The notes under the pieces are model-generated. The model saw only the letters and a list, made by a program, of their open reading frames with translations. It made no database searches and was not told where the DNA came from. Shown one piece after another: positions 1,342 to 33,818 of a stretch of 53,736 nucleotides of DNA. Source of the stretch: a virus (taxonomy: Duplodnaviria > Caudoviricetes); IMG/VR virus record IMGVR_UViG_3300037485_000603, positions 1 to 53,736 of that record. One strand, written 5' to 3'. The stretch's first letter is position 1. Every line of letters starts with the position of its first letter. The position numbers were made by a program, and so were the translations under genes.

Positions 1342-1926
1342 ATGGCTACACGCGAAGACTGGCTCATGTCCCTCGTGGATGAAGTACGCCCCCTGTTCGA
1401 GGCGCACACTGGCGCCCCCTTGCCCGCCCGCATCCGCGTGGCTTGCGGCTTCCCATCTTCTGCCCGCCGCTCGGGCGCCATCGGTGAGTGCTGGGCCGAC
1501 GCTAGCTCAAAAGATGGGCACTTCGAGATCCTGATCTCGCCCGTCCTGGACGACCCCGCGACGGTCGCAGCCACCCTGGTGCATGAGCTTTGCCATAGCC
1601 TGCCGGGTTCGATGAACCACAGCAAGACCTTCGCCACCCACGCAGCGAACATGGGCCTTGCCCCCGGCGCGAAGGGTTGGAAGAGCACCGGACCGGGCGT
1701 GGACTTCGACTCGCGCTACGGCGCGATCCTGGGTGCCCTTGGTGCCTATCCCCATGCCCAGCTTGTTATGTCTGACAAGCCAAGGCAAGCCACCAGGATG
1801 CTGAAAGCGGTTTGCCCTAGCTGCGGATACACGATCAGGTTGACGAAGAAGTGGGCCGATATGGGCCTGCCTTTGTGCCATCAGGATGGCGAGCAATTCG
1901 CCCTCGAAACCAGCGACGAGGAGTAA
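1342..1926 (+). CDS. SprT-like zinc metalloprotease with C-terminal Zn ribbon
   Basis: HELCH (HExxH) plus downstream His (NHSKTF); CPSCGYTIR...CH; strong RBS. Confidence 0.8.
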   Translation: MATREDWLMSLVDEVRPLFEAHTGAPLPARIRVACGFPSSARRSGAIGECWADASSKDGHFEILISPVLDDPATVAATLVHELCHSLPGSMNHSKTFATHAANMGLAPGAKGWKSTGPGVDFDSRYGAILGALGAYPHAQLVMSDKPRQATRMLKAVCPSCGYTIRLTKKWADMGLPLCHQDGEQFALETSDEE

Positions 1927-1930
1927 AGAG

Positions 1931-3442
1931 ATGAACACCAAGATTCTTCAGACCCTGCTGGCCCTGCCCGGGGCCCAGCTTGCCCGGGCCGCCAATGCCT
2001 TGTGCGGCGCCGCCGAGCGCACGAAGGTCGAGGCCGCCCAGGCCCTCGCCTCGCGCATCAGCGCGGGACTCTGCACGATGGAAGACGTCCGCCGCGCAAC
2101 CGCAACAGCCGGCACTCTCCCCGTCGGCGGGCTCGCTCCCCAGGCTCCAGCGCAGTTCCAGGCTCGCGTGTCGGTCAGCGCACCGACCCCGGCATTCCCC
2201 CCCCTGCCCGACCCTCGGATTGACGCAGCCGCCCAGGTAGCCGCCCGGGCCGAGGCCGAGGCCCTGCGCCTCGCCTCCCAGGTGCAGGCACTCGCCGCAT
2301 TGACGCAGACGCACAACAACGGGTTCGCCCGCGTACAAAGCGAGATATCCATCCTCGGCACGACCCTGGCCCAGGGTCTGGGCTCCCTGCGGGCAGAGGT
2401 CGCCACGCTGCGCGACTCGGGTCCCGAGGTCCGCAGCGAGATCGCTGCCCAGGTAGCCACCGCTTTGGCGCCCCTGCTCGCCCAGGCCACGCCGGAGACG
2501 GCTCCCGCAATCATCGCCTCGGTGGCCGCACCTACAGGGCAGCGCTCGACCCTGGAGGTGTTCGGGTTTGATCTGAACGATGCCAAGGGCAACCCCGTCA
2601 TGGTCGATACATGGGCAGATCCCCAGGCCGAGCAGGTCGATCCCTGCTATATCTGGACTGCCCCCCTCCTGCGCCGCATCATCATCGGCGCCGAAACCGG
2701 GCTTTGGCTCGGTGGCCCCAAGGGGACCGGGAAAAGCGAGGCCTTGCGCCAATTCGCCGCCCGCACCGGGCGCAGGTACACCCGCATCAACTTCCGAAAG
2801 TACACCAGTTCCGAGGAATACATCGGCGGCACGGGTCTGGCCGGCGGCGCAACCGCGTTCCAACCCGGACCCTTTTTGCAGGCGTTTACACACCCTGGTT
2901 GTGTCGTGCTGCTCGACGAGATAAGCAACGCCGACCCCGGGGAGCTAGCCCCGCTAAACGGGCTGCTGGAGCCCCGCGCCGCAGTCAGCATCGGCGGCAG
3001 TGTCTGGCGCCGCGCCCCCGGTGTTTACATCGCCGCCGCCGATAACACGCTCGGGTCGGGTGACCAGTCGGGCCGGTACGCCGGCACCCGGGGGATGAAC
3101 AGTGCCCTTATGGACCGCTTTGGTCTTGTTGCGAGGATGGACTACCTGCCCAAACAGCTTGAGATCGATGCCCTGCGCCGCCACACAGGCTGCTCCCAGG
3201 CCCTGGCCGAGCACGTCATGGGCGCGATCCAGGTATGCCGCGCCAAGGTCGACACAGGCGAGGTCGTGGACGCGCCCAGCATCCGCAGCGCGGTGGCCTT
3301 TATTCGGGCACTGCGCTTGATGCCAGTAGCTGAAGCCTGGGCGGACACCATCGTTGCCCGCCAGCCGGTCGAGTCCCATCCCGCCCTGGCCGCGATCTAC
3401 TCCGCGACGATCAACCACGAAACCATCGAGGCCGCACTGTGA
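1931..3442 (+). CDS. MoxR/CbbQ-NirQ-NorQ (CobS-like) AAA+ ATPase
   Basis: Walker A GPKGTGKS, Walker B VLLDEI, AADNT and ALMDRF motifs; N-terminal helical region. Confidence 0.88.
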   Translation: MNTKILQTLLALPGAQLARAANALCGAAERTKVEAAQALASRISAGLCTMEDVRRATATAGTLPVGGLAPQAPAQFQARVSVSAPTPAFPPLPDPRIDAAAQVAARAEAEALRLASQVQALAALTQTHNNGFARVQSEISILGTTLAQGLGSLRAEVATLRDSGPEVRSEIAAQVATALAPLLAQATPETAPAIIASVAAPTGQRSTLEVFGFDLNDAKGNPVMVDTWADPQAEQVDPCYIWTAPLLRRIIIGAETGLWLGGPKGTGKSEALRQFAARTGRRYTRINFRKYTSSEEYIGGTGLAGGATAFQPGPFLQAFTHPGCVVLLDEISNADPGELAPLNGLLEPRAAVSIGGSVWRRAPGVYIAAADNTLGSGDQSGRYAGTRGMNSALMDRFGLVARMDYLPKQLEIDALRRHTGCSQALAEHVMGAIQVCRAKVDTGEVVDAPSIRSAVAFIRALRLMPVAEAWADTIVARQPVESHPALAAIYSATINHETIEAAL

Positions 3443-5040
3443 CCCAGGTAACAGACACCATCCGCGCCCTGCTCGGGCGCCCGACGATCCACGGGTATCA
3501 GGCCCGCCACGGCCTGGAAACTTTCGCGCACGTTGCTTGCTCGTCCCTTGGCCTGCCCCCCGTGCGCGTCCACTGGCAGGCCGGGGTCCAGACTGCGGCA
3601 ATCAACCGCAGCGGGGATCTGATGCTCTCGGATATCCGCGACGACGCCCAGGTGCGCCGGGCGCAATTTGTCCGCTGGGTCGGGTACGTGGTCCACGAAC
3701 TCCTCCACCGGCGGTATACGGACTTTGGCGCCAGGGATGGCCGGTCTTACGTGGACGCGCTCCACAACGCCCTCGAAGACGCATGGATCGAGTCCCGGGC
3801 CATCCGCGAGGGACTGCTCGGCAACATCTCCGGGGTACTCCGCGAGCTTATCGACGGGATGACTTCCGAGGCTATCGCCTCGGGCCATGACTGGTCCGAT
3901 CCCCGTCAGTATCCCTACAGTATTGCCGTTTACACGCGCCCCCATGCCAGCATCAAGGCCCCGGTGCCGGCCACGCTCCTGCCGGTATGGCGCGAGGCCC
4001 TGGCACGTATCGCCCTGGCCAATAGCTCGCATGACACCCTGGCAGTGGCCCGCTGGGTATACGACCAACTGCAGATCCCGCCGCAGCAACAGCAGCAGCA
4101 GCAACAGCAGCAGCAACAGCAGGGCAAAGCCGGAGGCGCCCAGGCAGGAGGCGCCCAGGCAGGCGACGCCCAGGCAGGCGACGCCCAGGACGCCCAAGAC
4201 GGAAAACCCCGGGCCGGATACGCCGAGGTGCCCGACGCTGGCCCCGCGCAGGCCCCTAAGGCGCACCAGGGCACGCTCGAAACCGAGCCCGAGATGCAGG
4301 GCGGCGGCGGCGCGGGATTCGGGCCTACCGGGGTTCTGGAGCGCGCCGCACTGCACTCGTTTGACCGCTACGAGATCAAACATCAGATCCCGGGCGGACT
4401 GCGCTATCAAGTTCGCCGACTACTGGAGTGCTCCGGGCGCGAAGACCTGGACTCGCACCGGCTCGCTGGTAGCCTGGACACGCGGCGCATCGCCGCCTCG
4501 GCCTGGACCGAAAGGGTCTTCGCCCGCCGGATCGAGGAGGCCGGGATCGAGGCCGCTGTAGTTGTTCTGCTCGACATGAGCGGGTCGATGGGTGGCGAAC
4601 GTGCTCCGGTCGCTATCCCTGCCGCCCTGGCCCTGCTGGAGACTGTCGAGGCGGCGCAAGCCTCGGTCATGGGTGCAGTTTTTGGCGACGAGGTGGCGCC
4701 CTTCAAGCGCTGGACCGAGACAACCCGCCGCGTCACTCCCCAGGCCCGCCGCCTGATGCTGGCCGGGGGGACCAATGACTACTACGCTATCCGATGGGCG
4801 CACGATCAACTCCTGCGCCACCCTGCGCCACGCAAGGTTGTCCTGGTCTTAACCGACGGAGTCGGGGACGGGTACAAGGCTCGCGCCCAGATTGCTAGCG
4901 GCTCGCGCCTGGGTGTCCAGACCATCGGTATCGGGATACAGGCAGACGTCTCCAATGTCTACGGGCACGGCTCACCCTGCGTTGTGTCGCTGGCAGACCT
5001 GGGTTCTGTCGCATTCCAGCAAATCAAGCAAGCCGCTTGA
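3439..5040 (+). CDS. VWA-domain protein (CobT-like partner of the AAA ATPase) with N-terminal HExxH
   Basis: HELLH and NALED N-terminal motifs; MIDAS DMSGSM...GGT...TDG; GTGA overlap with the ATPase gene. Confidence 0.85.
   Translation: MTQVTDTIRALLGRPTIHGYQARHGLETFAHVACSSLGLPPVRVHWQAGVQTAAINRSGDLMLSDIRDDAQVRRAQFVRWVGYVVHELLHRRYTDFGARDGRSYVDALHNALEDAWIESRAIREGLLGNISGVLRELIDGMTSEAIASGHDWSDPRQYPYSIAVYTRPHASIKAPVPATLLPVWREALARIALANSSHDTLAVARWVYDQLQIPPQQQQQQQQQQQQQGKAGGAQAGGAQAGDAQAGDAQDAQDGKPRAGYAEVPDAGPAQAPKAHQGTLETEPEMQGGGGAGFGPTGVLERAALHSFDRYEIKHQIPGGLRYQVRRLLECSGREDLDSHRLAGSLDTRRIAASAWTERVFARRIEEAGIEAAVVVLLDMSGSMGGERAPVAIPAALALLETVEAAQASVMGAVFGDEVAPFKRWTETTRRVTPQARRLMLAGGTNDYYAIRWAHDQLLRHPAPRKVVLVLTDGVGDGYKARAQIASGSRLGVQTIGIGIQADVSNVYGHGSPCVVSLADLGSVAFQQIKQAA
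4084..4188 (+). repeat. In-frame CAG/CAA poly-Q13 tract plus 4 x 15-bp (AG[GD]AQ) repeats
   Basis: 13 Gln codons at 4084-4122; GCMGGMGRCGCCCAG x4 at 4129-4188. Confidence 0.95.
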
Positions 5041-6975: not shown

Positions 6976-8673
6976 TCAGAACGCGTCTAGGTTCTCGCTG
7001 TACGTCCCTGCGGTACGGTTGAAGAGGAGGGTCGTTTCTCCCTGCGTCCCGACCCACCGATACCGGCACTTCCAAACTGCGATCTCGACGTACCTATCCT
7101 GCCGGTGGACCGTCAAGCCGCAGTCTGCCTTAGCCCACCATGCCATGGACCCGCTGATGCTCATGCCATCCGGCCGGGGTTGATCTGTCCCTGACCGCGC
7201 CATCTTCGATGGGTGAGCAACGAACCATGTGTGAACATCCTGCGCCTTGCAAAACCTTTGGACCCTGGTCAGCATCTGACTGATAGCGTCAGTTTCTGTC
7301 GTGTCCTTACGGTCTAGATCGATGTAGTTGTACGGGTCTATGACCATTCCCCGCACACCCATGCGCTTGACTGCTGCCCGGGCTCTGGTCAGGATGCTAT
7401 CCAGAGTGTTGGGCTCTTCCCCCGCTGAGTCGATGAAGAGGAAGTGCTCCTTGACCCATGTAAACGCCTCCTCCTTCTCCTTCTCGGTCATCCGGTCTCG
7501 ACCCTCGAAAAACCTTTTGTGTGTGTAGATTTCCATCAACCTGCTGATGTGGATCTCTGGGGAGTTCTCGAAGGATGCAACGGCAAACTTCCAATCGCTC
7601 TTCCTGGCGAGGTTGACCATCAACTGATCAACGAAATTGGACTTGCCCGAAGATGGATAGCCAGTGACCACGGTCAACTGCCCAGGAGCCACCGTGTAAA
7701 TGCTGTCGAGTGCGGGATACCCGGTGCTGAACCCCGAGCCCTGCCCCTTGGAGTAAAGGTCGTTTACACGTTCCTCGAAGGTGCTGGCGTCCGACAGGCC
7801 TGCGATGGGGTACGGATCCGCCGCCTCCACGATAGCCCGCACATCCTCCTTGCCATTCCGAGAGGGGTCATTGAGGATCTCGTTGAAATCCTTGGCATCG
7901 AACTTTGCCAATCGGCACTTGTCCTTGCCAATCCTTCTGGCAAGCTCTTCAGCCAATGCTTGCCCCGGCGGATCCTGATCTGTTGCAAGAACGACGTAAG
8001 GAACAGCATCAAGGAGTTCGCGTGCGTTCCATACAAATGCGAACTTCTTGTCTTCAGATGGAAGAACCTTCCCATCTGCCACCTTCAGTGGAGCGCCACC
8101 CGGCACTGAGACTACGTTCTCGATGCCTGCTTCCTTGGCAGACAGGACATCTATCTCTCCTTCGACGATGACCAGTGGCTTGGTCTTGTCTGCCCACTGC
8201 ATCCCAAAGAAGTCATGCGCCCCGCCGGAGTCTTGTGTAAATGCCTTGTCCGGGACTGCCCGATATTTCACTGCGACCATCACCCCGTCTCTGAAGTACG
8301 GGAACCCAATCGCCTCTGCCTCCTTGTCCAGCTTGTTGAAGTACTTCCTTGTGGAGAAGAGCTTGGCCTCGTCTGATGTCAGCCTTGATATACCCCGGCC
8401 TTCAAGCCAAGCGTAGTGTTCCTCTGTAAGCCTTGCGTCCTCGATCTTGGGGACTGCTTGCACGTATCTCTCCTTCCTGTGTTCTCTGTTATCCCTTGAA
8501 GGGATGATTCCGTTTACACCGCAGTGATGGCAAAAGTAGAGCACTGACCCGTCTTCTTTACGGGTCAGGGTCATGTCTTTGCTTCTTGTTTTTTTCCTAT
8601 CCCTGGTGCATTCGGGACAGGCTACGCGGGCGTGGTCGTTGAAATGTGTTTGCTCAAGGACCGCTTCGATCAT
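6976..8673 (-). CDS. T7 gp4/Twinkle-type DNA primase-helicase
   Basis: Zn finger CPEC...CHHC, TOPRIM (EGEID, DQD), SF4 helicase (TGYPSSGKS, IDPYN, VAHP, ISGS). Confidence 0.93.
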   Translation of the reverse strand: MIEAVLEQTHFNDHARVACPECTRDRKKTRSKDMTLTRKEDGSVLYFCHHCGVNGIIPSRDNREHRKERYVQAVPKIEDARLTEEHYAWLEGRGISRLTSDEAKLFSTRKYFNKLDKEAEAIGFPYFRDGVMVAVKYRAVPDKAFTQDSGGAHDFFGMQWADKTKPLVIVEGEIDVLSAKEAGIENVVSVPGGAPLKVADGKVLPSEDKKFAFVWNARELLDAVPYVVLATDQDPPGQALAEELARRIGKDKCRLAKFDAKDFNEILNDPSRNGKEDVRAIVEAADPYPIAGLSDASTFEERVNDLYSKGQGSGFSTGYPALDSIYTVAPGQLTVVTGYPSSGKSNFVDQLMVNLARKSDWKFAVASFENSPEIHISRLMEIYTHKRFFEGRDRMTEKEKEEAFTWVKEHFLFIDSAGEEPNTLDSILTRARAAVKRMGVRGMVIDPYNYIDLDRKDTTETDAISQMLTRVQRFCKAQDVHTWFVAHPSKMARSGTDQPRPDGMSISGSMAWWAKADCGLTVHRQDRYVEIAVWKCRYRWVGTQGETTLLFNRTAGTYSENLDAF

Positions 8674-8947
8674 CTACGTTCCCGTCGAACAGATCGTGTT
8701 GATTGCGACCATGTTCAACATGGCTCTCGATGATGTTCTTGATCTTCACTTCCCAACTGCTGGGATACAAAGCGAAGCAATGGCTTCCGGCGCCATTGGT
8801 CTTTGGCCTATTGTCCTTGGGCGGCTGTTCGCCGAACTCCCTGTAATAAATGGAAGCCATCTCAGAGCCGACAGACCACGCAGTTTTTTTGTCAAGCGTC
8901 ACGCCCATGTTGCGGGCCACTTGTGGAACTGTGATCCTCTGATTCAT
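8654..8947 (-). CDS. hypothetical protein
   Basis: Coupled ORF in the replication operon. Confidence 0.65.
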   Translation of the reverse strand: MNQRITVPQVARNMGVTLDKKTAWSVGSEMASIYYREFGEQPPKDNRPKTNGAGSHCFALYPSSWEVKIKNIIESHVEHGRNQHDLFDGNVDDRSGP

Positions 8948-9180
8948 TTCATTGACCCGTCCTTCCTCCTTGGGAAGCTACGATTTTTGGACGGAGTCTG
9001 AAGTTTGTACCCGTCCTTGTTTGAACCGCCCTTGGACAGCGCAACGGCGTGGGCTACGTCCTTGCCCTGCCTGTCCACTCCCTTCGCGTCTAGGGCCCTT
9101 CTGGCCCTTTGGCGCTCCATCCGAGAGGGGTGTTCGTCCCTCCCCTTCTGGGTCTTGTACTCCTGCTTGTAGTCCCTCAT
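8944..9180 (-). CDS. Small HNH-like protein
   Basis: GKDVAH...LSKGGSN...SKNRS degenerate HNH pattern. Confidence 0.6.
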   Translation of the reverse strand: MRDYKQEYKTQKGRDEHPSRMERQRARRALDAKGVDRQGKDVAHAVALSKGGSNKDGYKLQTPSKNRSFPRRKDGSMK

Positions 9181-9440
9181 TGCAGAGTCCCCGGGCCTTC
9201 GTGCATGTCTTCCTTCAGATCCTCGGCGATCATCTTGACCGCTTCGACAAGGGTCAGCATCACCCCAAGCGATGCCATGTTGAAACTGCGCATGTTGATC
9301 TTGAGGGAATCGGACATCTCATCAACGGTGATCAAGATGGCGGGCTTACCCGACCCACTACGAAGCTCATCAACGAGGTTCGCCATCTCATCAACACCAA
9401 CATTGATGTGCGTCTCAAACTTCTCGACTTCTGCTTTCAC
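9177..9440 (-). CDS. hypothetical protein
   Basis: GGAG RBS, coupled at both ends. Confidence 0.65.
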   Translation of the reverse strand: MKAEVEKFETHINVGVDEMANLVDELRSGSGKPAILITVDEMSDSLKINMRSFNMASLGVMLTLVEAVKMIAEDLKEDMHEGPGTLQ

Positions 9441-9748
9441 TTCGATCTCCAGACGGGCTGTGCCCGCGCATGACTCCTGACCGAGCGGCTGCTTCTGTAT
9501 TCGCCCGTCTTCTCAATGAGGTTGAGCTTGGACAGATGTAAACATACCGCTCCCCATGCGTTCGGAGAGGGTGGATAGGGTAGACCGTTGTTCTCTGCCC
9601 TGACCCTGACCTCCTCGAACAGGGCGCCTTTGTACCCTATGTCTCGGAGGTATGCAAGCGCTATTTTGAGGGCGGCGCTATGCCAGTCACTTCCTGCATT
9701 GAACAGAGCTTGCTGAGCCCCAGCATCTCTCAGAGTTTGACCGTCCAT
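9437..9748 (-). CDS. hypothetical protein (possible winged helix)
   Basis: PPSPNAWGAV...IEKTG...SH...VWRS pattern; first ORF after the long structured leader. Confidence 0.65.
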   Translation of the reverse strand: MDGQTLRDAGAQQALFNAGSDWHSAALKIALAYLRDIGYKGALFEEVRVRAENNGLPYPPSPNAWGAVCLHLSKLNLIEKTGEYRSSRSVRSHARAQPVWRSK

Positions 9749-9751
9749 TCC

Positions 9752-10191
9752 TGCCTCTCTTTTGATTTAGGCAAGCCTCTGCCAAAGCCAGGGGTTGGGT
9801 GATCCCCCCTGTCTTGCACTGCTCTTCCTGGTAAGAGACCAAGAAGAGATGTCATCCTCCGTGATGCCTGTCATCCTCTGTATCGGATGCTGACCAATTA
9901 AGAAGGTGGGTAAGTCCTTCCGGCTGGTCCCTGCCGCCCCGCGAATCACCCTGTACGCATCATTCGCTTCCTGTGCTGGAGGGCACATGAAGCCCGGTCC
10001 CCTGGATCACCGGCGTTGACAGGCCCGACCACATGCTCTGATCGGTGAGGTGTTTCCTGGGTTCAGCCCATGCAGGCATCTGCTAACGCGCCCTGACGGT
10101 CATCTGCACTGACCACCCCCGGCACCTGGGGCCAGAGGCTCAGTCTGGTTGCCCAAGGGTGAGAGCCCCGAGGGTGGTCAGTGCAGACGAC
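9752..10191 (-). ncRNA. Putative ~440-nt highly structured RNA (ncRNA or leader of the primase-helicase operon)
   Basis: Starts at the predicted TSS; 24-bp stem with G-U pairs valid only on the - strand; possible pseudoknot; about 10 further hairpins. Confidence 0.65.
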
Positions 10192-10197
10192 AAGAAC

Positions 10198-10248
10198 ATC
10201 CTACGTGATGCCGCCGGGGTTTGCAAGCGGAAACCTCTGGGCTACACT
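10198..10248. promoter_or_regulatory. Back-to-back sigma70 promoters sharing a palindromic -35 TTGCAA
   Basis: - strand TTGCAA(10226-10221)-17-TAGGAT; + strand TTGCAA-16-TACACT(10243-10248). Confidence 0.65.
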
Positions 10249-10703
10249 GTCTTCCGCTCAGTTGCTTGAGCGATCTCCCTCCTGTGGCGCTGGGTAGCGC
10301 CTTGACCCCGGTGAGCGCGTCTCCCGGGGTCTTTTTTTTGCCCCGGGATCTCCCGGACTGTGATCACACATCGAGGGCACTCCTTGTCTTGATGCCAGTA
10401 GATGTGCTTCTCCTTGACCTGCCTGTCGTTTACATAGAGCCTTCCCTGGAGCAGATCTAAGATGAGGCTCTCATCCAAGTCTGGCCGTCGGGAGGCGTAC
10501 CAGATGTGGATCTCGACCGAGACATCCTTGTCTGTCGGGTTCTCGACAGGCACACATTGCTGTTGAAACGCATCTGCGTAGGTCAGTGCCTTCTGGCTCT
10601 TGATCAGCCGGGACATCCCTCCGAACCGGACAAGCCTTCGGCTGTTGGCTTTGCTGGCCGGCTCCCCAAAAATTTCTCTTGTCTCACAAAAAAGTGCTTG
10701 CAC
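10242..10703 (-). CDS. rusA: RusA-like Holliday junction resolvase
   Basis: GEPASKANSRR, RRPDLD, LLQGRLYVNDRQV motifs; GTG start at 10703 preferred over 10745. Confidence 0.8.
   Translation of the reverse strand: MQALFCETREIFGEPASKANSRRLVRFGGMSRLIKSQKALTYADAFQQQCVPVENPTDKDVSVEIHIWYASRRPDLDESLILDLLQGRLYVNDRQVKEKHIYWHQDKECPRCVITVREIPGQKKDPGRRAHRGQGATQRHRREIAQATERKTV
10255..10339 (+). ncRNA. Putative ~85-nt sRNA with anti-Shine-Dalgarno seed
   Basis: Hairpin CGCTCA/TGAGCG, unpaired ATCTCCCTCCT, hairpin GGCGCT/AGCGCC, then intrinsic terminator. Confidence 0.65.
10304..10339 (+). terminator. Rho-independent terminator of the putative sRNA
   Basis: GACCCCGG...CCGGGGTC followed by T8. Confidence 0.8.
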
Positions 10704-10726
10704 TGCATCTAAGCTAGTGCTATGCT
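10698..10726 (+). promoter_or_regulatory. sigma70 promoter of the recombination/accessory operon
   Basis: TTGCAC-17-TATGCT with extended -10 TG; same pattern as the promoter at 1251. Confidence 0.7.
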
Positions 10727-10756
10727 CTGTCTCATCGTTCAACACAGGAGGTCTCC

Positions 10757-11635
10757 TTGATCATCACCAACAACCACGGTGCCCCAGCTACGCTGGTCGC
10801 CTTGGCGAACAAGAACTATTACTCGAAGGGGGACTCGGACTATTCTGTCACCGAGCTTCTGTCCCCGCCTCGGGTCAGACGCCTACAAGAACGGCACGAC
10901 CCTTCCTTGAAGAAGGATGTGTCGGACATGTTGTGGGCCTTGCTCGGATCGGCACTCCATGTGGTTGCCGAGCGGGCCTCTGCGGAAGGTCATGTTGTTG
11001 AAGAGCGGATCATTGCAGAGGTGGACGGGGTCAAGGTGTCGGGCGCCATCGATCTGCAGGAGATGACCGCCGAGGGCGTGGTTATCACCGACTACAAGTT
11101 CACCTCCGCCTATTCCGTGATGAACGAGAAGAAGGAATGGGAAGAGCAACTGAACCTGTACAAGTGGCTGGTGGAGTCCGTCAAGAGGATCCCAGTCAAA
11201 GGTCTCAAGATTTGCGCATTGATCCGTGACTTCTCCCGCCATGACCGGCGCGAGAACTATCCGGAGTCCCCGATCCATATGGTGGACATCCCGATGTGGG
11301 ACTCAGTCAAGGCAGAGGCGTTTGTGCGTGCTCGTTTACATCTGCACGCAGAAGCCAAGTTTGCTGACGCGATGGAGGGTCCGCTTCCTCCTTGCTCTGC
11401 AGAAGAGCGTTGGTTCTCAGAGACGACCTACGCTGTGAAGAAGGAAGGCAGGAAGACTGCCGTCCGTGTGTTCAAGACCATTGAAGAGGCCAACGAACTG
11501 GCCGCGAAAGAGAAGGCTCACTATGTCGAAGTCCGAGTCGGAGAACCCCGCCGTTGCACTGGAAACTACTGTAACGTCGCAGAGCACTGCGACCAATGGC
11601 AGTCAGAAGTCCGTGCTGGATCTGCTGAAACTTGA
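10757..11635 (+). CDS. PD-(D/E)XK Cas4-like exonuclease
   Basis: GSALH, SGAID, TDYK, QLNLY motifs; C-terminal Cys cluster RCTGNYCNVAEHC. Confidence 0.85.
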   Translation: MIITNNHGAPATLVALANKNYYSKGDSDYSVTELLSPPRVRRLQERHDPSLKKDVSDMLWALLGSALHVVAERASAEGHVVEERIIAEVDGVKVSGAIDLQEMTAEGVVITDYKFTSAYSVMNEKKEWEEQLNLYKWLVESVKRIPVKGLKICALIRDFSRHDRRENYPESPIHMVDIPMWDSVKAEAFVRARLHLHAEAKFADAMEGPLPPCSAEERWFSETTYAVKKEGRKTAVRVFKTIEEANELAAKEKAHYVEVRVGEPRRCTGNYCNVAEHCDQWQSEVRAGSAET

Positions 11636-20338: not shown

Positions 20339-20595
20339 ACAACAAGCTGAACGCCGCAGAGAGGGAACATCTCCGCAGGGTCAAGGAGCTACCCTGCGGG
20401 GTCTGCGGCGCGGCGGGCCCTTCTGATGCTCACCACATCAAACAAGGGCTTCAGTACCTCTGCATCCCTCTTTGCCGGGACTGCCATCAAGGTGGTTTCA
20501 ACGGCATCCACGGACAGGCCAGGATCTGGTCTGTCCTAAAGAAGGATGAGATGACCGTTTTAAACGACATCATTGCGCGGCTATCATCTTCTTGA
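20335..20595 (+). CDS. DUF968/Ref-like HNH-type Zn nuclease
   Basis: LPCGVCG...AHH...IPLCRDCH..GIHG. Confidence 0.75.
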   Translation: MNNKLNAAEREHLRRVKELPCGVCGAAGPSDAHHIKQGLQYLCIPLCRDCHQGGFNGIHGQARIWSVLKKDEMTVLNDIIARLSSS

Positions 20596-23500
20596 TGTGC
20601 TGAATGTTGGAGGCCATGTTGTTCTCCATCGTCGTGATGTTGAGGGTGATGTCCCTCTTCTCATCCGCATCCATGTCTGAGGCCCGCACAAAGGTCTTCA
20701 TCTCGCGGAAGTCCTTCATGGATTTCTCCATGTCCAGCACGTAGTCCTTCGTCAAGAACAGTCCCTGGTTCTCTTGCACGTAGTCCGCCCAGTCCTGGGG
20801 CTTCATACTTCTTTCCAGGAGGTTGGCGGTTCTTACAGCCTCATCCACAGAGTTCTTCAACTCGTAGTAGGCAGTGACCTGACCTCGTGCCTCGGGATCC
20901 ACCGCGAACCGTTTAATCACCGGCATCTGTTCAAACCGCTTGGATGCCTTGGGGGAGTCGCTGTTCATGTCGTAGATGGCATCGAACAGATCCACCATGT
21001 ACCCGCCCAGAGTACCGGTGTATCCCCGGATCATCTGGTCAACCTTCATGGGCGATAGCTGGAGTGCCGTGGGTAGTCCCTTGCTTGCTTCCCCGGCCAA
21101 CTCTGCAAGCCTGGAGGTGGAAGGCCCGACCTGATACGCCGGAGCCACACTCTCCAGACCCTGAGACACGATGGGCCTCTGGGTGAAGAAGGAGTAGTTC
21201 GTCACCGACTCCACAATCGGAAGAGCCGTCTGAGGGATCGGGTTAAACGCCAGGGTGCTGGTCAACTGCCGAGCCATCGACTTGAGGAAGTCCTTCCCGG
21301 TGTCATCCCCAAAGCTGTACTCCAGGATGCGCTCAGGGATGACCTTGAAGAGAACACCGATTTCAAACGGGATGGGAATCTTGACGTCCCCTAGGATCCA
21401 GTAGTTGTCCCGGGTCTCTTGCTCCTGCTTCTTCCACTCATCGTCTTCGTGGACCAGCATCCAGTACATCGTGGACAGGGCTGCGATGGTCATGCCCCGG
21501 ATGAAGAAGCTCGTCTGGATCTCCTTGGCGTTTGCTTCCGTACCCTTCCCAAATGCCGCCCGGTACAGAACATCAAGGCCCTGCATCCGAGCATTCAAGA
21601 ACGGCACTGCTGCGGTCAGAACACGCACCAGAGGGTTGTTGCCCTTCCGGTTGAAGTTCATCACCTCCACCGCCCGGAACAGAGCTTCTGCCTCATTGCC
21701 GGTCGCCGCAAGAGTCTTCTTGTAGACCTCCATGCGGGTTGCTGCGTCAGAAGCCTGGGTGCCCGTTTCAAGCGCATCCCAGAGAGATGTAAACGGACGA
21801 GCCAGTTTTTCTCCAGTTGTGTAAATACCAGCTTTCTTGCGCAGAGCCCGGTCAAACCTACGTGCGCTGATCTCTACACCTTGGGAGTAGTCATAACCAC
21901 CGATGACACCGGAGTTGAGGAGTGCCGAGTACTCTGGGTTCTGGCCCCTGAGAGCCTTGCCAAAGTTGGTCATGGTGTCCACCATTGGGGTCATCTTGAC
22001 CCCGGAAGACACCCAGGCAGACACTGAGTCCCGCATCATGTTGGCAAGCATGAAGGCAGGATCCTTGGTGACCAAGTTCCGCAGGACGTTCGCCGGTCCA
22101 GCCAGAAGCCCAATGAACGGCAGATCCCCCAGGTTCAGACTCTTCATGGCCTCCACGAAGAGCATGTCCTTGGTCTCGTAGTACGAGGTCTTGCCGTTCT
22201 CCAGCACCTTGACCACGTTGGGGGCCGAGGAGACGTAGTTCAGCCTGTTTGCCTGACCGATGGCAACAGCAGTGTTTACAGCACGCTGGGCTGCAACGTT
22301 CTTCATCCCCGCTTCGATGGAGTACTGAACGTTCCGGACCACCGTCTCCAGGAACTCTCCGATGGGCAGATCAGATTTCTTGAGTTTCTTGGGGGCGCGA
22401 ACACCAGACAAGGAGGCAAAGATCTGGGGGCCGACAGTCTCTTCCCCGTCAGCCTGACGGTAGAAGGGGATGTAGTCCGAATACTTGACGAACTCCTTGG
22501 CCGCTTCTTCAGAGAGAACCCCGGTGTCCTTCAGATATTGAACCAGACCATTGTTGAACTTGATCCATTCATCATGGATGTCTTTGAACTCAGGATGATC
22601 CTTGAGGATCTGCGCGGCAGTAGCACGATCTGCCGGCGTGATGATCCCGGTTTCTCTACCCTGTCCGTACAAACGGATGCCCCTGTTTATAGCGGCCCAG
22701 GTCTGGTACTTCTGGTAGATGAACGGATCGTTGTACTTCGCCAGCGGGGCGAAGATGGCAATCGGCCCCTTGACCGTGTTGTTGTTGTTGACGATCTTGG
22801 TGTGACCGTTTACATACACAGGAATACCGCCAACGCCATCATGCACCCCCATAGCCCCGGCCAGGACACCGGCACTCAGATCAGACATGAGCGCAGCGCC
22901 ATGAGAACTTGCATCCGCAAGCAGCGGAGCGCCGCCCATCAGGCGGACAAGCTCTTTGTCGTACTCGCTCAGACGGTTGTACCGATCCAGGAAAGCCGCC
23001 CGGAAGGAGGAGGCAGACTTCGGGGCAATGGCCTCGGTGATCCGCTTGATGAAGGACTTTTCTTCGCGGGGGGTGGTGATCTGATCGACCCGGGCACGGG
23101 TGACAGGATCTGTCGTATCACGCAGGCTTGCCTTGATGCTCGGATCTACAGGATCAAACTTGCCAACGTTGCCGATGGCAGATTTGATCTGTTCGGGGCG
23201 GAAGGCAATATATGCGTTTTGATCTTTCCACTCGGCATTTCCATGTTTTTTAATGATGATGCCGTCATACAAACCGTACATCTCATCAAGAAACGCATCC
23301 GAACTTCCCCAATGCCTGTTTGCTTTATGAGCCTTGGCGGCTGGCCCCCTCGTTGGCTGCGAGTCCTTCCACAAATCACGAAGCTCTTGAAAAGAATCAA
23401 GAACAAGTGGATTTTTCAGGCTCAGATACGACGGCATCGTCACAGGACCATAGTCCTGCGCCCGGGCTCGATTGTCTGTAAACCACGATCCTATTGAATC

Positions 23501-26500
23501 CAGACCATCAATTGCCTTTTGTGGCGGGCGCCGCATGAATTCTGAAAAGTCTGCAGCCGTCCCGTGATACACCACAAGAGGCCTTCCATCCCCATCAACA
23601 ACGGCACTATCCTTGAACCATCTCCAGAAGTTCTTGGTTCCTTCTTCATTGGGATAGATGGGCTTGTTGGTGCTGCTGGTAGTAGGACGCTCAGTGCCGT
23701 CTACGTTGACGGTGTCACGCAGGCTGAACCGGGGCAGTCCGGTAGTGCGGACACGCTCCTTCATAGCGGGGGTGACATCGAAGCCGGGTTGCTGGTCATG
23801 CGCGTACTTGGCACGGAACCCGCCTTCCCCAAGTCTCCTCAAGTCCTCCTTCATTACTTCTTTGTCGTACTTCCGCATGGAGTCCTTGAGCAGATTGACA
23901 TCTGTCATCTGCCCACCACCAACCTTTGGCAGGAGCTTCTTCACTGCTGTCGGGACAATGGTGTCGTAGAAGGTCTTCATGCCTTCGCCGCCGACCCTGA
24001 GATCGAGGCCGGAAAGCTCACGCGTATCTGCAAGGGCAGGCTCGACTTCAGGGTCAAAAGGCTGCTTGCCTTCGCGGGCGTCCATCTTTTTAACGATCTC
24101 GACGCCAACAATATCCTCAAGCTCGCTACGGGTGAAGTTGCCATCCTTCACGTTTCTGCCGCCTGCCATTACGTTAATGCTATAACCTTTTCCAGTAGGC
24201 TCGTAAGAAATACTATCAACCTGCTTGCTCAGGTCATATCGCTCGGCACTCTGGTCCCCGTTTACAAACGCCACCTTGTCATAGCCACCCTCTCCGGCCA
24301 TGACCATGATGCGTTTCAACGCAAGGTTCAGCCAGCCTTCGGTCTTGGTGACGAAGGGGGCGGCGGGGATCCGATCCCGCAAAGCAACTGCCTTGTCCCA
24401 AGCCTCCTCCATCTGTCTGCGTTCGTCCATTACCTTCGCAATGCTGTCAATATCTTCTCTTGCTGCGAGCTTTTCTCCCATGCGTATAGCAGTCGCTCGC
24501 TCTTCTTCGGTGTCTGCGGCGTCAAGGTAAAACAATTTTGCGCGCTCTCTCAAACCGCGCTTCCATTCTTTAAATGATTCCCTCCAGTCCCCGGCAATAA
24601 ACCCCTTCTTCTTCCCCTCCTGCCCCCAGTCAGATTGAATCTCTTCCACAAACAGCACCTTGTTGCCTTCGGCGTCGGTGCGGTCGTTTACACGGATATG
24701 GGCAAGGACGTTGGGCTGCTTCCAATGACTAGACCTGTACTCCGGCCTGTTTTGCGGGGCTCCATATGCCGCTTTATCCAATTCAGCAATCAACCGATCA
24801 GCCTCGGCGTTCTCTTCCTTTGTGGCTTTTCGGCGCCAAGCGAAAGAACCGTTGTACTTTTCTTGCATCTGCTCTTGATACGAGACCCATGCACGTTTGG
24901 CTCTTTCGTGTTCGCTTCTGGAGATGTCAGGAATGGTTAGCAGCACTTCCCGGTAGTTCTCGCCGCCCGGGAGGCTGTATTGGCTGTACTGGGCTTGACT
25001 ACTTTCCGGCGCAGTTGTTGGGCCCTCACGATCAAAGCGATCACGAAGCTCTTCAAGCTCTTCTTTTTCTGCGGCACTAAGGTTTCTATAGCCCCTGGTT
25101 TCCAGTAGGTCAAGCCTTTCGCGCCACGGCTCTCTTCCGCCCAGCACCGTCTCTTCAACCTGCACGCCACCATTCTTCAGGTAGGCCAGCAGATCTTCCT
25201 TGGTGACAGAGCCCTTCTGGAGATCAAGCCAGTCCCTGACGCCAGACCACTCGATCTCTTCCGGCTTGACACCCTTCTGGGTCAGGCCATTGATGTAGCC
25301 CTTCCATGCCTCTGCCGTTCCCTTGCCAGGGCCTTGGGAGACCTTGGCTTCGAGTTCGCTGTAGAGGCCGAGCTTGTCTCTCAGGCTGAACTTGACTTTG
25401 CTTTCTCCGCCAAACTCTTCTTTTAGAGCTTTTGTTTGACGATATTCAAGCGGAATCAACTTGGTTGCTGTCAATGAAAGGCCGCGGCCTGATTGAAACC
25501 TTTGCCCTTTGATTTCAACGCTGTCACGGCGTTCGTATTGATCAGGCTTCTTAGACCCAAAACGGTCTTTTACATACAGGACAACAGGGGCAGACTCAAC
25601 ACCTTCAGCCGCCATCGCAGCCATACGGTGTCTGCCCTCATGCCCAATGATGACTCCCTTCTCAATGTCCCATTCCAAAAATGGGGTCTGAGATTGACGG
25701 GCGATTTGTTCTCGATCCAACTTTCCAGCTTCCGCCTTAATCTCGTCGGCAAATTCTTTTGAAGGTGTTGTTGCCCCAATAAAGTCTTGTGGGTTTACAT
25801 AAGCGGCTATACCAAATGTCCTGCCGTCTATATAACCATAGTCATTGATCAGTTTGTCAATGCGTCTGTCTGACCATGTTGCATCAGTTTCTCTCAGGCT
25901 GGGCTTGGCAATCGGGATGATCTTCTTGCCGGCCTTGATCTTCTCTTGATCTCGGATGACAACGGTGTTCCCGTCCCTCTGCCGGTCGTAATCGACAAAG
26001 AATCCATCGTGCCGTAGTGCAGCGTCTTCTGGCCTGCCCGTCCTGTCCTTGTTGGTCAGGCCGATGATCATGCCCTTGTTGAAGAGGTTGCCCTTCTGGC
26101 CGGGCCGAGGATCCAGGAACCGGGCGTCGTAGTTATCGCCGTTCCAGACCTGGAACTTGTCCCCGGTCTTCTCATCCAGCACAAAGTCGGGCATGTCCCG
26201 CTTGCTTGTAAACGCCATCGCCACGTTGAACCCATTGTTCAAACGCTTGATCATGGCGTCCCAGTTGGACCCGACACCAACCGTCTTTCCTTCAACAACC
26301 TGAGCCGCGCCGTCAGAGCTATAGGTCAGGTGGTGGTTGTCAGCAATCGGACCCGGCGTTGCCAGCTTGGTGTAGTCATAGAACCGGACACCAGGGAACC
26401 CCTCAATGAAGGGCTTGAGCATCTTCGGCGGGAAGTCGCTCGTCACGTTCAGGCGTATAGCAGGTGTGTAAACCTGCTTCTTAACGCGACTTTTTTCTCC

Positions 26501-29500
26501 GTTCTCTTCCGTGATGACCTCAAAGCCCTTGTCGCTCTTGGCCCAGGATTCAAACTTCTTGATCTCGTCGTAGAGGACGATGCCGAACTCTTCCGGGTGC
26601 ATCACCAGGGCTTCGGTCTTCAGATACTGAGACAGCCTGGGGCCGGCGCGGAACGGACCATCACCGCCGTAAAGCTGGTTCTGACCGCTGGTCTCACCCA
26701 GGCACAGACCCTCACACCGGGCCGACTGCGGGCAGGTAGACAGGTTGCGCTCGTTGATCTTCTGGGCGCTGGCAAGCCCAAGCCCCAGGGACGCCACGCT
26801 GTTCTGGATGTCTTCCGGAAGCTGGTACTCGTTCAAACGGGTCTTCTGCAGCTTCCCGTTTTCACCAAGGAGGGTGCCGACGTTGTGCTCGTCCTTGAGC
26901 ACCTGCCGGGCCTGGGCGAGCTTGGCACGCTGATCTGCCGGCGAGAGTTGCTTGTACGCAGAGATGGCAGACTCAAGGCCCTTGCCGATGTCACCAATCG
27001 TCGTGGTCTTGGCGATAGCCTCGCTGCGCGGCTTGTAGAGCGTGAACAGCTTGGTCATCTTCATCTTCTCAGCGAAGGCATTGCCCTCTGCCAGTTGGAT
27101 GAAGAAATCCTTCCGGCCATCCGAATGCTCCATGTCGAACTGGAGCATCTCCGGCGGCACCTGAACCATCACGTTGGCTTCAATCGGACCCTGATCGATG
27201 TTGCCAGCCCTGGTCCGGACAGCAGCAGGATTGGACTCGTTGGTCAGATAGATCCGGTTGGACGTTGGGCTGGTCGCCTTGAGTCTCTTGGTCTTGGCGA
27301 CTTCCCGGGCGGACAGATTGCTGGTCGGGAAGTACAGGGTGACCGTGCCATTCGCGTTGAGCGGCACGTTCAGAACAGGATGGTTCTCTTTGCCCTTGGC
27401 AAGCTCTTTCTCCCCATACGGGGCCTTGATGGAGAGCTTGGGCGTTTCAACGGGCACCTCGATCTGCCCCGCCGAGGTATAGGGAAGGATGCCGTTCTGC
27501 TCTTCGTACTTCTCCGCGTCCGCATCCTCCTTCTCGGAGTCTTTCCAAGAATCGGGCGCGACGGGGCCGGCACGAAGCTCGCCCCGCTCCACCTTCTTGA
27601 AGATCCGCTCTGCATCAGGCTCGGCGCCGAATGCTTCCTTGATGGACTGGAAGAAGGTCCACAACTTCTTCACCAGAGCCTGGAGCATCCCAGGAGGGGC
27701 CTTGGTGGCCCTGAAGTCTGCGAAGGCATCAGCGATAGCCTCCTCCAGCATCGCCTCCTCGTCGCCGCCGTAGAACTTCATGTAGGCGTCGTACCGGGAC
27801 ATCTGCCCTTCTTGCAGAGGCTGTCTGTTTACATTCTTCTTCTTCAGGTACTGATCGACCCACTTCTCCTTGGCCTGCCGCTCAAGAGACTTCCACTGGG
27901 CCGGGGTGAAGAACCCAAGCTCCTTCAAGGCATGGATGGCCTCATGCCGCAGAGCAACGACAGGATCCACAGCATCAAGTGCCAGACTGAGAACCTTGGA
28001 GGCGTACTCCCCTTCAGCCTTCATGTCCGCCACAAGCCTGAGAGCCACATCCCTCAGTCCATAACGCGACATTATTCTTTGCAGAGCCTTGCCGAGCGCA
28101 TCGATCTTGGCCTGGATCTCAGCCGGCACTTCCTTGGCCTCTTTGACCGGCTCAGTTTCCCGGACAGAAGGCTTCTCCTCGGGCTTCTCTGCCTTGGGCT
28201 CCATCTCCTTGCGGATCTCTTGCACAAGATCAGGAGAGCTTGACCAGTTATCCCAGGCCGCTCTCTGCTGGCGGAGTTCCTTCTCCCGCTTCTTGAGGGC
28301 ATCGGGATCCTTGATGTCGATCCCTTCCTTCTTGGCGATCTCCGGGCGCCTGCTGGCGCCAGAGATGGCAGCAAGACGCTGGGCCAGTTGGTTCTGCTTG
28401 AGGGTGGCGATCTTCGCCATCTCCTCCGCTTCCCTCATGGCCGAGTCATCGAACCCAAAGAGATCACCACCACCCTCCGGCGCGGGACGGCCCTTGGAGA
28501 CCTCCTGCACCGCCTTGATGATGTTTACAGCAGCAAGAGGGCTCTTGCCCTCCTGGATAGCCTTTACGCCGACTGCTTGGAGGCGGGAGTCTCCAGGGGC
28601 TGCGTTTGCGATTGCGGCTGCGCCTGCGTCAGATACGATATCGGCGCGATGCGCTCCAACAAGCTCTTCACTGCCGTTCTTTGCGATGGCGAAAGCTGGC
28701 TTTCCCGGGGACCGCCCCAGGAGTCCTCTAGCCGAGGCGTCTTCTTCGGAGATCCCTGATTTCCTGAAGTAGGCGACATAGTCTCTTCCCTTTCCTTGTT
28801 GATCCCGGATGTTCAACTCAGCATCCAGGATCGACGCCTGATCTGCATCGAAACCAGTAGCCTCATCATGGACCTGGGCGCGGATCAGCTTATCGCCGCT
28901 ACGCTTCGCCAGATCAAACCTGTGCCGACCGGAGATGATCTCCAGCCTGCCGTCGTTCCTGCGCCAGACTTGGATGGGGGCAACACCTCGCTGATCGAAG
29001 GTTCCCTCCAGCTTCTCAACAATACCTTCAGTGTCGGCATCACCCTTGAACTGCGGCACTTCCTTTGACAAGGACAGTTGATCCAGGGGCAGTTCAACAA
29101 TTGGGTAGTTGAGGATGAAGTTCTGGACCGGCTTTTCCTTAGCCGCATCCGCCGCAACTTCTTCTTCCTCTTTGGTCATAGCCACAGCAGGAGGCTTGAC
29201 CGGCTCAACAACCTCCGGCTTTGCTTCTTCTGCAGGCTTCTCCGCCACGACAGGTTTTGTCGGCGCAGCACCTTCTCCAGGTTGTGTGGCCGGCTGTGTA
29301 GCTGTTTGTGTAAACAGATCAGGCGGGACAGTCTTCTCTCGGGGAACCCGCTGCGTCAGGATGGATTGGAGCGTGGATGCCCGCTGCTCCGGCGGCAGGT
29401 TCATGGCATATGCCCTTGCCTGATCCAGAGTGCCGACTGATCCATCGGGGAAGCGGAAGACGTCCTCTCCTTCGGGGGCCGTTGAAACAACAGGCTCAGT

Positions 29501-33817: not shown

Positions 33818-33818
33818 G

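Follow-up and report, generated by a model that had tools for sequence, protein, structure and literature searches.

A large structured non-coding RNA ahead of a phage primase-helicase operon and its place in a family of phage RNAs with exchangeable bodies

The window analysed here is the whole of a 53,736-nucleotide (nt) stretch of viral DNA (Duplodnaviria; Caudoviricetes; IMG/VR record IMGVR_UViG_3300037485_000603), a 53.7-kb linear virus record with a completeness of 89% (CheckV). Positions 9749-10191 on the minus strand encode a real, selected, structured and strand-specific non-coding RNA, which lies ahead of an operon that begins with a 103-residue open reading frame (ORF), ORF103, and includes a primase-helicase gene. 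This conclusion was reached because of the folding energy of the RNA relative to shuffled sequences, covariation and conservation among homologues, the interruption of a 73-residue reading frame in relatives, and the lack of an Rfam family. The RNA was also shown, at the level of sequence, to belong to a larger family, designated the 'CGUCAGGGCGCG module' RNAs, with which it shares a 5' module and a long-range pseudoknot, PK2. Both the family and PK2 were missed by an earlier reading of the letters made without database searches (the sequence-only reading), which had proposed a densely structured RNA at this place.

The 443-nt RNA folds with an energy of -204.5 kcal/mol (z -4.53), a value equalled by none of 100 shuffled sequences, whereas the opposite strand of 9749-10191 gave a z of -1.60 and 6 of 100 shuffles were as good. 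With the 5' hairpin removed, z was -2.23 (3 of 100 shuffles) compared to 0.03 (54 of 100) for the opposite strand. Homologues were collected with a protein search for ORF103, which returned 16 viral loci. Of these, eight loci (L001-L008) have the RNA (85-88% identity). In the other eight (L009-L016), which are more distant and whose ORFs abut the gene, the RNA was not found with blastn, with nhmmer or with R1, the covariance model built from the short form of the family described below. A metagenome scan with the pattern TACAGGGTGA..GGCGGCAGGGA matched 15 stretches and added three true homologues (L029, L030 and L034); the other 12 matches were rejected as chance, such as one within a 774-residue ORF of L032. 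Alignment A3 was built from these, with nine distinct rows representing eleven related loci plus the window; L005 and L006, identical to L004, were left out, as was L034, for which the nhmmer score and the printed 150 nt were the same as for L029.

The consensus structure obtained with RNAalifold on A3 contains 120 pairs, of which 98.7% of cells are paired and 14 pairs are changed on both sides. A hand-curated structure, consisting of the hairpins of the sequence-only reading together with PK2 (P0 to H17), contains 111 pairs, is 95.5% paired and has compensatory change on both sides at 17 pairs across the nine rows. None of 500 shuffles reached the values of the curated structure, and slid controls paired at 36-47%. 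Covariation and folding against shuffles were the checks that the sequence-only reading had put forward for a large, densely structured RNA on the minus strand, and both supported it. The RNA is 89-91% identical to that of its relatives, compared to 79-95% for neighbouring genes, while the linker behind the RNA and the spacer of the promoter-like site ahead of it could not be aligned. G-U pairs that would be A-C mismatches on the other strand had been taken as a sign of selection on RNA; this asymmetry is real on A3, where 112 of 997 cells are G-U and 16 are A-C, and it fits an RNA on the minus strand, in a count that is biased because the structure was derived on that strand.

The possibility that the region instead holds a small protein-coding gene, a 73-residue ORF at 9767-9988, is negligible. 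This ORF is unbroken in the window and in L003, but stops or frameshifts interrupt it in 7 of 9 rows, its variable columns fall 15/17/15 by codon phase with no excess at third positions, and it has no Pfam or PHROG match. Protein-like conservation of this frame had been named in advance as a finding that would speak against an RNA, and the coding reading fails. Searches with the 4227 models of Rfam 15, which include riboswitches, ribozymes, group I and II introns, GOLLD, ROOL, RNase P, tmRNA and 6S RNA, gave no match at the gathering score in the whole window, in agreement with the earlier statement that no known family could be assigned. At E values up to 10, a 1-kb region around the RNA gave only miRNA-like chance matches on the long hairpin and sub-threshold noise. 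No tRNA or tmRNA was found in the window.

The RNA opens with a hairpin, P0 (10099-10191, minus strand, as are all features of the RNA below), which in the minimum free energy fold has a 24-bp stem (10191-10168/10122-10099), inner GGG/CCC and CCAGA/UCUGG pairings and an apical loop CUGAGCC. In the window this stem starts at 10191 and is perfect with two G-U pairs, exactly as first described. On A3, 94% of the stem cells pair, several as G-U, and two (CG/UA, GU/CG) to three pairs are changed on both sides; in the relatives, three of the 24 positions are mismatched in 3 to 5 of the nine rows. A candidate pseudoknot within P0, GGCUC/GAGCC, is complementary and invariant in all nine rows and so lies beyond the reach of covariation. 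P0 is specific to the clade of the window, and the short-form relatives have other hairpins in its place, often with a U-run.

P0 is followed by the module that defines the family (10045-10100), which reads ACCGUCAGGGCGCGUUAGC..., contains hairpin H-a (GCCU 10077-10074/GGGC 10069-10066) and continues with GAACCCAGGAAACACC. H-a is 100% paired and has one covarying pair. Within the module lies the 5' arm of P1, GUCAGGGC (10090-10097), which both RNAfold and RNAalifold predict to pair with GCUUUGGC (9781-9788) as the closing helix of a 320-nt domain. All 8 pairs of P1 are invariant in the nine rows, so that covariation offers no test of the predicted helix; its 3' arm is located in the part of the RNA that is similar to the 3' module (...UUGG...) of the short family. 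The body of the window-type RNA (9804-10044) comprises helices H9 (10045-10040/10030-10025), H10 (10024-10019/9871-9866), H11 (10013-10009/9998-9994), H12 (9993-9983/9976-9966), H13 (9929-9924/9897-9892), H14 (9920-9916/9906-9902), H15 (9889-9885/9876-9872) and H16 (9848-9838/9832-9822). H9, H11, H12, H14 and H16 covary on A3, and H10 and H15 never vary. Among the hairpins listed in the sequence-only reading, compensatory change was found in CCGAUC/GGUCGG, CCGGU/ACCGG, GCUUC-UGUGC/GCACA-GAAGC, GAAGG/CCUUC and CUCUUCUUGGU/ACCAGGAAGAG, and no variation in CAUCC/GGAUG or CAGGGG/CCCCUG. Others in that list fared less well: GACCAG/UUGGUC holds its A-U pair in the window alone (1 of 9 rows), and UGGG/CCCA, GCGAAU/AUUCGC and CAUC/GAUG are imperfect in relatives, as judged on A3 by eye without counting.

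PK2 joins the body to the 3' end of the RNA. Its 5' arm, GGGUGAU (9945-9951), is complementary to AUCACCC (9797-9803) over 7 Watson-Crick pairs and is invariant in the window clade; the hairpin GCGAAU/AUUCGC encloses this arm, and the 3' arm of that hairpin shares base 9945 with it. The 3' arm of PK2 is presented in the loop of hairpin H17 (9789-9811; CAGGGG 9811-9806/CCCCUG 9794-9789). Every position of H17 is invariant in the window clade, and the short-form relatives have a homologous YCACC element.

Relatives beyond the window clade were searched for in IMG/VR with a pattern of the module (CAGGGCGCGTTAGC, 3-9 nt, CTGCATGG; an exact 22-base pattern), which was present in 109 stretches. This defining search did not list the window itself, whose membership comes by way of R1 and nhmmer, and recruitment with an exact pattern is in part responsible for the apparent invariance of the module. 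The module pattern was absent from 185,579 prokaryote species genomes (one each), as was a 3' motif in a parallel scan, although exact patterns miss diverged copies. When the window and the short-form subtypes t1 and t2 were used as blastn queries against INPHARED, the sole match was MW202484.1, an uncultured podovirus, whose similarity to the window is confined to 56 nt (10045-10100; nhmmer E 6e-14). In this record the RNA is of the short form (module at L042:2502-2557) and lies, in the region 33533-33892 (L042:2410-2769), within a coding sequence annotated as hypothetical protein UOF77725.1. In a clustering of ORFs, two clusters of spurious ORFs, with 60 and 19 members, overlap with the conserved RNA, and the family is probably a source of false gene calls.

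Enough sequence for classification was available at 106 loci, of which 97 have a shorter RNA and 7 have an RNA of the window type, L055 has a third kind of body and L101 has no body. At L101 (3400-3468), a minimal version of 66-69 nt joins the 5' module directly to ...UCCACCCUUGGGGAACCUAUG at the 3' end (R1, 63.5 bits); this version may be a deletion derivative or may equally be the bare core of the family. The short form extends for 225-286 nt from the module to a conserved ...CUAUCCACCCUUGGRGAACCUAUG, and its bodies fall into subtypes t1 (44 unique) and t2 (17 unique). An alignment of 56 short-form rows over the first 187 nt supports 36 pairs in seven helices, 93.4% paired, with 23 changed on both sides. 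Its covariation score was 0.445 compared to 0.142 in shuffles, and none of 500 shuffles reached it. An H-type pseudoknot, PK1, pairs at 100% and covaries at all 6 pairs; the helix CCCAAG/CUUGGG is weak, with 84.5% pairing and 1 covarying pair. A P1-type pairing UCAGGG/CCUUGG in the short family was considered and rejected, since seven sequences have CCUAGG without a compensating change there. The CCUAGG change covaries instead with AAC[A>U]AGG in the loop of helix H-d and is confined to one subclade. No Rfam match at the gathering score was found in 14 family loci, and at E values up to 10 t1 and t2 gave only hits at the level of chance.

PK2 extends across the family. In the short form, its partners are a GGUGR segment in the H-d loop of the body and a YCACC in the 3' module. 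Of 101 unique sequences of the family, 87 could be parsed and 14 could not; the variable position was G-C in 68 of the parsed sequences and A-U in 19, and was never mismatched (the best of several GGUG sites was taken in 19). The next position often covaries. R1 gave one match in the window (9988-10100; 54.4 bits, E 1e-17), in which model positions 1-52 only are aligned and 117 positions are skipped, and the same was seen in relatives of the window. The short-form body, which consists of H-b, H-c with PK1, and H-d, was absent from the window, and clustering of bodies set the window type apart (7 loci compared to 97), with the two kinds unalignable. At the 3' end, the window keeps UUGGCAG and then diverges from the CCC UUGG RG AAC CUAUG of the family, while the relatives of the L004 type have AUCACCC, 11 nt and UUGGCAGACCUAUG, in the frame of ORF103; judged by its sequence, this L004-type end is the 3' module of the short form with an insertion. 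These sequence comparisons lead us to regard the window RNA as a rare enlarged variant: its 5' module, PK2 and 3' element are homologous to those of the family, its body is of another kind and larger, and an extra 93-nt hairpin stands at the 5' end. The family itself is defined by the near-invariant 5' module of 52-56 nt, a 3' YCACC(C)...UUGG... element that pairs with the GGUGR loop, and an exchangeable body, which measures ~130 nt with an H-type pseudoknot in most members and ~250 nt, plus the 93-nt 5' hairpin, in the window clade. A search of the full-text literature outside subscription journals and supplements, two recent preprints on intergenic RNA discovery included, found no description of it, and we rated the RNAs as a new, apparently undescribed family within the broad known kind of structured phage leaders and large non-coding RNAs.

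The members occupy several genomic settings, in all of which the RNA has the orientation of the genes that follow. The t1 RNAs lie in early, lambdoid-like regions, with genes for an Erf-like protein and an exonuclease divergent upstream and, in 37 loci, RusA ~1.1 kb downstream; the neighbour met most often is a small protein similar to the C-terminal portion of replication initiators. A long U-run hairpin usually stands ahead of the t1 RNA, and ...CUUGGGGCUUUUUU occurs inside many of these RNAs. The t2 RNAs are located between a portal gene plus a gene of 258 residues and the gene for the major head protein. Across the family, the first downstream genes are diverse and include replication-initiator-like, HNH, methylase-like, PAPS-reductase-like, major head protein and ORF103 genes. 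ORF103 itself showed no similarity to the usual first gene of t1 loci and found only viral hypothetical clusters in the Atlas. Conservation of the RNA starts abruptly at CGUCAGGG regardless of the sequence upstream. As side observations, the upstream U-run hairpins of t1 loci recur in two kinds, which may be conserved elements in their own right, and a T-arm-like GGUUCGAUUCC lies just upstream of the RNA in L049, L123 and L138, where a T-arm-like CUGGUUCGAUUCCAG was seen ~20-60 nt 5' of the module. ARAGORN calls no tRNA there, nor in a run on six family loci. In t2 loci, such as L045:1104-1553 on the minus strand, the RNA is followed by an A-rich stretch and a near-consensus TTGACA-17-TATAAT, and a conserved hairpin GGGCCAUGGACAACCGAAAGGCCC lies ~130 nt before the major head protein gene.

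These settings bear first on the suggestion of the sequence-only reading that the RNA might serve the primase-helicase module as a replication primer or origin. The RNA does adjoin replication genes behind a promoter-like site, but iterons are lacking (the only repeats, of 10-22 nt, are present in two copies each), there is no AT-rich stretch (G+C is 0.62-0.63, compared to 0.53-0.57 in the flanks), and the G-U pairs show selection on one strand. Further, relatives sit between portal and major head protein genes, and at the more distant ORF103 loci the element is missing beside the ORF103 homologue (0 of 8). An origin or primer is therefore very improbable.

The reading that we favour, tentatively and with somewhat less than even confidence, is that the RNA is a cis-acting 5' leader of the operon from ORF103 to the primase-helicase and acts on the expression of the genes behind it. 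Its transcription would start at a conserved sigma-70-like promoter of its own. The 5' and 3' ends of the folded domain would then meet beside the ribosome-binding region, so that the fold could set the efficiency of translation initiation at the first gene and would probably make the 5' end of the mRNA more stable as well. A cis-acting leader is favoured because, in most short-form loci, the start codon of the gene that follows forms the end of the RNA. Among 54 parsed t1 loci, the terminal AUG or GUG opens, or is in frame with, a long downstream ORF in 34, and in a further 14 the ORF that it opens is no longer than 15 codons and stops no more than 12 nt from where the next long ORF starts; the count is conditional on a pattern that requires RUG, and 29 of 104 unique loci were unparsed. 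A purine-rich UUGGRG resembling a Shine-Dalgarno sequence lies 5-7 nt before the terminal codon, just past the PK2 strand. Further points in favour are the ACCUAUG of the L004-type relatives, which is in frame with ORF103, the shared orientation of the RNA and the genes behind it, and the lack of a terminator between the RNA and ORF103. The 'regulatory leader' offered in the sequence-only reading is thus compatible with the link to downstream start codons across the family, while action in cis is what we infer from it.

Several observations weigh against a cis-acting leader. In 19 of 21 parsed t2 loci the terminal AUG opens an ORF of only 2-13 codons, and the next long ORF, encoding the major head protein, lies farther on behind the consensus-like TTGACA-17-TATAAT. 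The t2 RNAs thus keep the 3' module and PK2 without an adjoining long ORF, which indicates that the 3' end matters apart from the start codon. In the window, the conserved RNA stops 32 nt short of the ATG, and the Shine-Dalgarno sequence belongs to the unconserved linker and not to the fold. Nor could a conserved sequestration of the ribosome-binding site be seen. The diversity of downstream genes means that no ligand or autoregulator suggests itself, and the AUG/GUG count was itself obtained with a pattern in which RUG was obligatory.

The t2 arrangement would suit a stable RNA that is cut from the transcript and acts in trans, either as a scaffold or as a decoy that draws off a host protein or a defence system. 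Such a role is suspected for other large phage-associated RNAs. The t2 RNA ends the unit of the portal and 258-residue protein genes and stands before a separate promoter-like site rather than a long ORF, the predicted P1 closes a domain after which the linker of the window is unconserved, and the family combines an abrupt start of conservation at CGUCAGGG with exchangeable bodies. The window RNA, however, is followed by neither a terminator nor another defined 3' end, and the last three bases are tied to a start codon in 48 of 54 t1 loci. Likeness or complementarity to rRNA, for which E. coli rrnH served as a stand-in, did not exceed that of shuffles (best in the window 22.3 bits, with 23 of 40 shuffles at or above it). 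We consider a trans-acting RNA unlikely. A CsrA sponge, which would present GGA motifs, was rejected, as the number of GGA triplets is by inspection about that expected from base composition.

Equally unlikely in our judgement is a processive antitermination element of the put or nut type, in which host RNA polymerase, bound by the nascent transcript either directly or by way of a factor, would read through terminators in the operon. Contact with a conserved host machine would fit the near-invariant module of 52-56 nt, which is found across otherwise unrelated phage contigs, and the t1 members lie in terminator-rich, early, lambdoid-like settings with a long U-run hairpin upstream and ...CUUGGGGCUUUUUU inside. 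Antitermination does not depend on the distance to a start codon, which suits t2 and the window. It would, however, make the conserved Shine-Dalgarno-like UUGGRG and RUG at the 3' end superfluous, and put RNAs are described as ~70 nt long with two stem-loops (PMC9378689), against 225-440 nt and two pseudoknots here. A terminator scan of 8600-11000, which covers part of the operon only, found three weak minus-strand sites, all within ORFs, and no terminator-like site between the RNA and ORF103.

Processing of the polycistronic transcript was considered as well, either by a self-cleaving or otherwise catalytic RNA that cuts at its own 5' edge, which in the window would free the 93-nt hairpin, or through a cassette for RNase III or another processing activity. 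The large size, two pseudoknots and many invariant unpaired bases are in keeping with catalysis, as is the way in which conservation begins sharply at the 5' edge, right behind unrelated elements. In the window, the 24-bp stem stops one base before CGUCAGGG, and the usual substrate of RNase III is a helix of at least 20 bp. Yet no Rfam ribozyme family matched, even at E values up to 10, and the subtypes differ in the body, where much of a catalytic core would be expected to lie. This alternative is quite unlikely.

A broader interpretation, which we hold to be possible but doubtful, is that these RNAs form a new functional class, in which the invariant 5' module and a double-pseudoknot core act on host RNA polymerase or the ribosome, or by catalysis, and the bodies are modular add-ons. 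The RNA would then be a portable 'expression cassette' exchanged among phage morphotypes, neither an ordinary riboswitch nor an attenuator, and the window would hold its largest known version, ~420 nt with the extra 93-nt hairpin.

In the window, a RusA-like gene (10242-10745, minus strand) is followed by 493 bases without a conserved ORF and then by the operon, with minus-strand ORFs of 103, 87, 78 and 97 residues ahead of the primase-helicase gene (6976-8673). ORF103 (9437-9748, minus strand) belongs to phrog_27658, which has no assigned function. Ahead of the RNA, a -35-like TTGCAA (10221-10226) and a -10-like TAGGAT (10198-10203), both on the minus strand, are present as the sequence-only reading had claimed. 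Both hexamers are unchanged in nine of nine rows, while the 17-nt spacer and the bases adjoining the -35-like hexamer vary. The spacing of the hexamers would place the transcript start near 10191. Contigs from sequencing runs, among them two runs labelled 'RNA-Seq' that are probably DNA, showed no transcript ends. The pattern TTGCAA-N16-18-TANNAT occurs once in the window and at least once in 14 of 100 shuffles, and a generic promoter scan did not call the site, which scores 8 of 12 at a threshold of 9. Behind the RNA, the linker (9749-9780, minus strand) carries a Shine-Dalgarno-like GAGAGG/AGGCAGGA upstream of the ATG at 9748 and is poorly conserved. Its part 9749-9775 gave no blastn alignment in six of six relatives, and on A3 the linker occurs in three differing versions, of which the L004 type holds ACCUAUG in the frame of ORF103. 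A 16-nt direct repeat (15 of 16 identical) links 9853-9868, inside the RNA, with 10197-10212 in the -10 region (GGCATCACGTAGGATG on the minus strand); it is probably due to chance, as the promoter copy in relatives has another spacer sequence.

Other features of the window were noted in passing. The 97-residue ORF (8654-8947, minus strand) just upstream of the primase-helicase gene coincides with an indel at 8647-8943: contigs of three runs link 8646 to 8944 through 17 other letters, and among six relatives the region could be aligned in L002 only. Within the RusA-like gene, positions 10340-10456 reach a summed contig depth 40-60x the local background in two aquatic runs, and this part of the gene is common to many other phages in the two aquatic samples; a hairpin CCCGGGG / A8-loop / CCCCGGG lies at ~10338-10368 in the same ORF. 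An ORF of 3358 residues (20570-30646, minus strand) encodes a giant 'polyvalent' protein with an ART-PolyVal ADP-ribosyltransferase domain (E 2e-24), LPD38 (E 1e-35) and a GP88 domain, and is not an N4-type virion RNA polymerase. On the plus strand, opposite to the RNA, positions 1886-5040 encode an AAA_5 ATPase (518 residues; PHROG 'porphyrin biosynthesis') and then a VWA/CobT-like protein (533 residues), a chelatase-like or MoxR-VWA-like pair.

Few structured RNAs combine a length of more than about 200 nt with several pseudoknots, and most of those that have been characterised are ribozymes, riboswitches or RNAs that bind cellular machines. The family described here is present in over 100 copies in contigs of uncultured phages, mostly from freshwater, with no exact-pattern match in the 185,579 prokaryote species genomes and no Rfam family. 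It is common to phages of different genome organisation and sits at choke points of expression, namely at the start of a replication operon, ahead of nin-like early genes and before a capsid gene. Its modular build, with constant ends and exchangeable bodies, is unusual. At least one GenBank record (MW202484.1) lists the RNA as a hypothetical protein, which makes it a source of false gene calls as well. The defined fold and the testable pseudoknots make its role for the phage directly approachable.

Several known systems share some of these properties. In phages T7 and lambda, RNase III processing hairpins stand at the 5' ends of early mRNAs, and P0 of the window resembles them as a long, near-perfect 5' hairpin of 20-24 pairs with G-U pairs, and with mismatches in relatives. 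The likeness covers the first 93 nt only, and the other 350 nt have no counterpart in those hairpins. Like GOLLD, ROOL and other large 'ornate' RNAs (10.1101/2024.12.08.627333; PMC2864571), the family is large, intricate, phage-borne, mainly metagenomic and without an assigned function. Unlike GOLLD and ROOL, it is smaller, lies directly against a start codon in most members and has no Rfam match to them. The put RNAs of phage HK022 are described as cis-acting antiterminators of ~70 nt with two stem-loops, located downstream of early promoters (PMC9378689). The family resembles put, on that account, as a phage RNA element downstream of a promoter in an early operon with terminators that is indifferent to the identity of the downstream gene (PMC9378689). 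It differs from put, as described there, in its length of 225-440 nt, its two pseudoknots and its conserved start-codon region, a distinction drawn from description and not from sequence. A group I intron was rejected, as RF00028 did not match at E values up to 10 and the flanks are promoters, hairpins or complete ORFs rather than split genes. A metabolite riboswitch found no support either, since the family is not associated with genes of a single pathway or with transporter genes. Translational leaders of the riboswitch or ribosomal-protein type with a pseudoknot beside the Shine-Dalgarno sequence include preQ1-II, SAM-II, the rpsO/S15 operator and the leader of T4 gene 32. Unlike these, the family RNA is much larger, its body is exchangeable, and the Shine-Dalgarno sequence of the window lies outside the conserved fold; the unrelated downstream genes give it no ligand-pathway or autoregulatory logic, and no Rfam riboswitch or leader matched. 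What it has in common with them is a conserved folded domain in the 5' untranslated region and, in most members, a YCACC pseudoknot strand only a few bases before the Shine-Dalgarno-like UUGGRG and the start codon.

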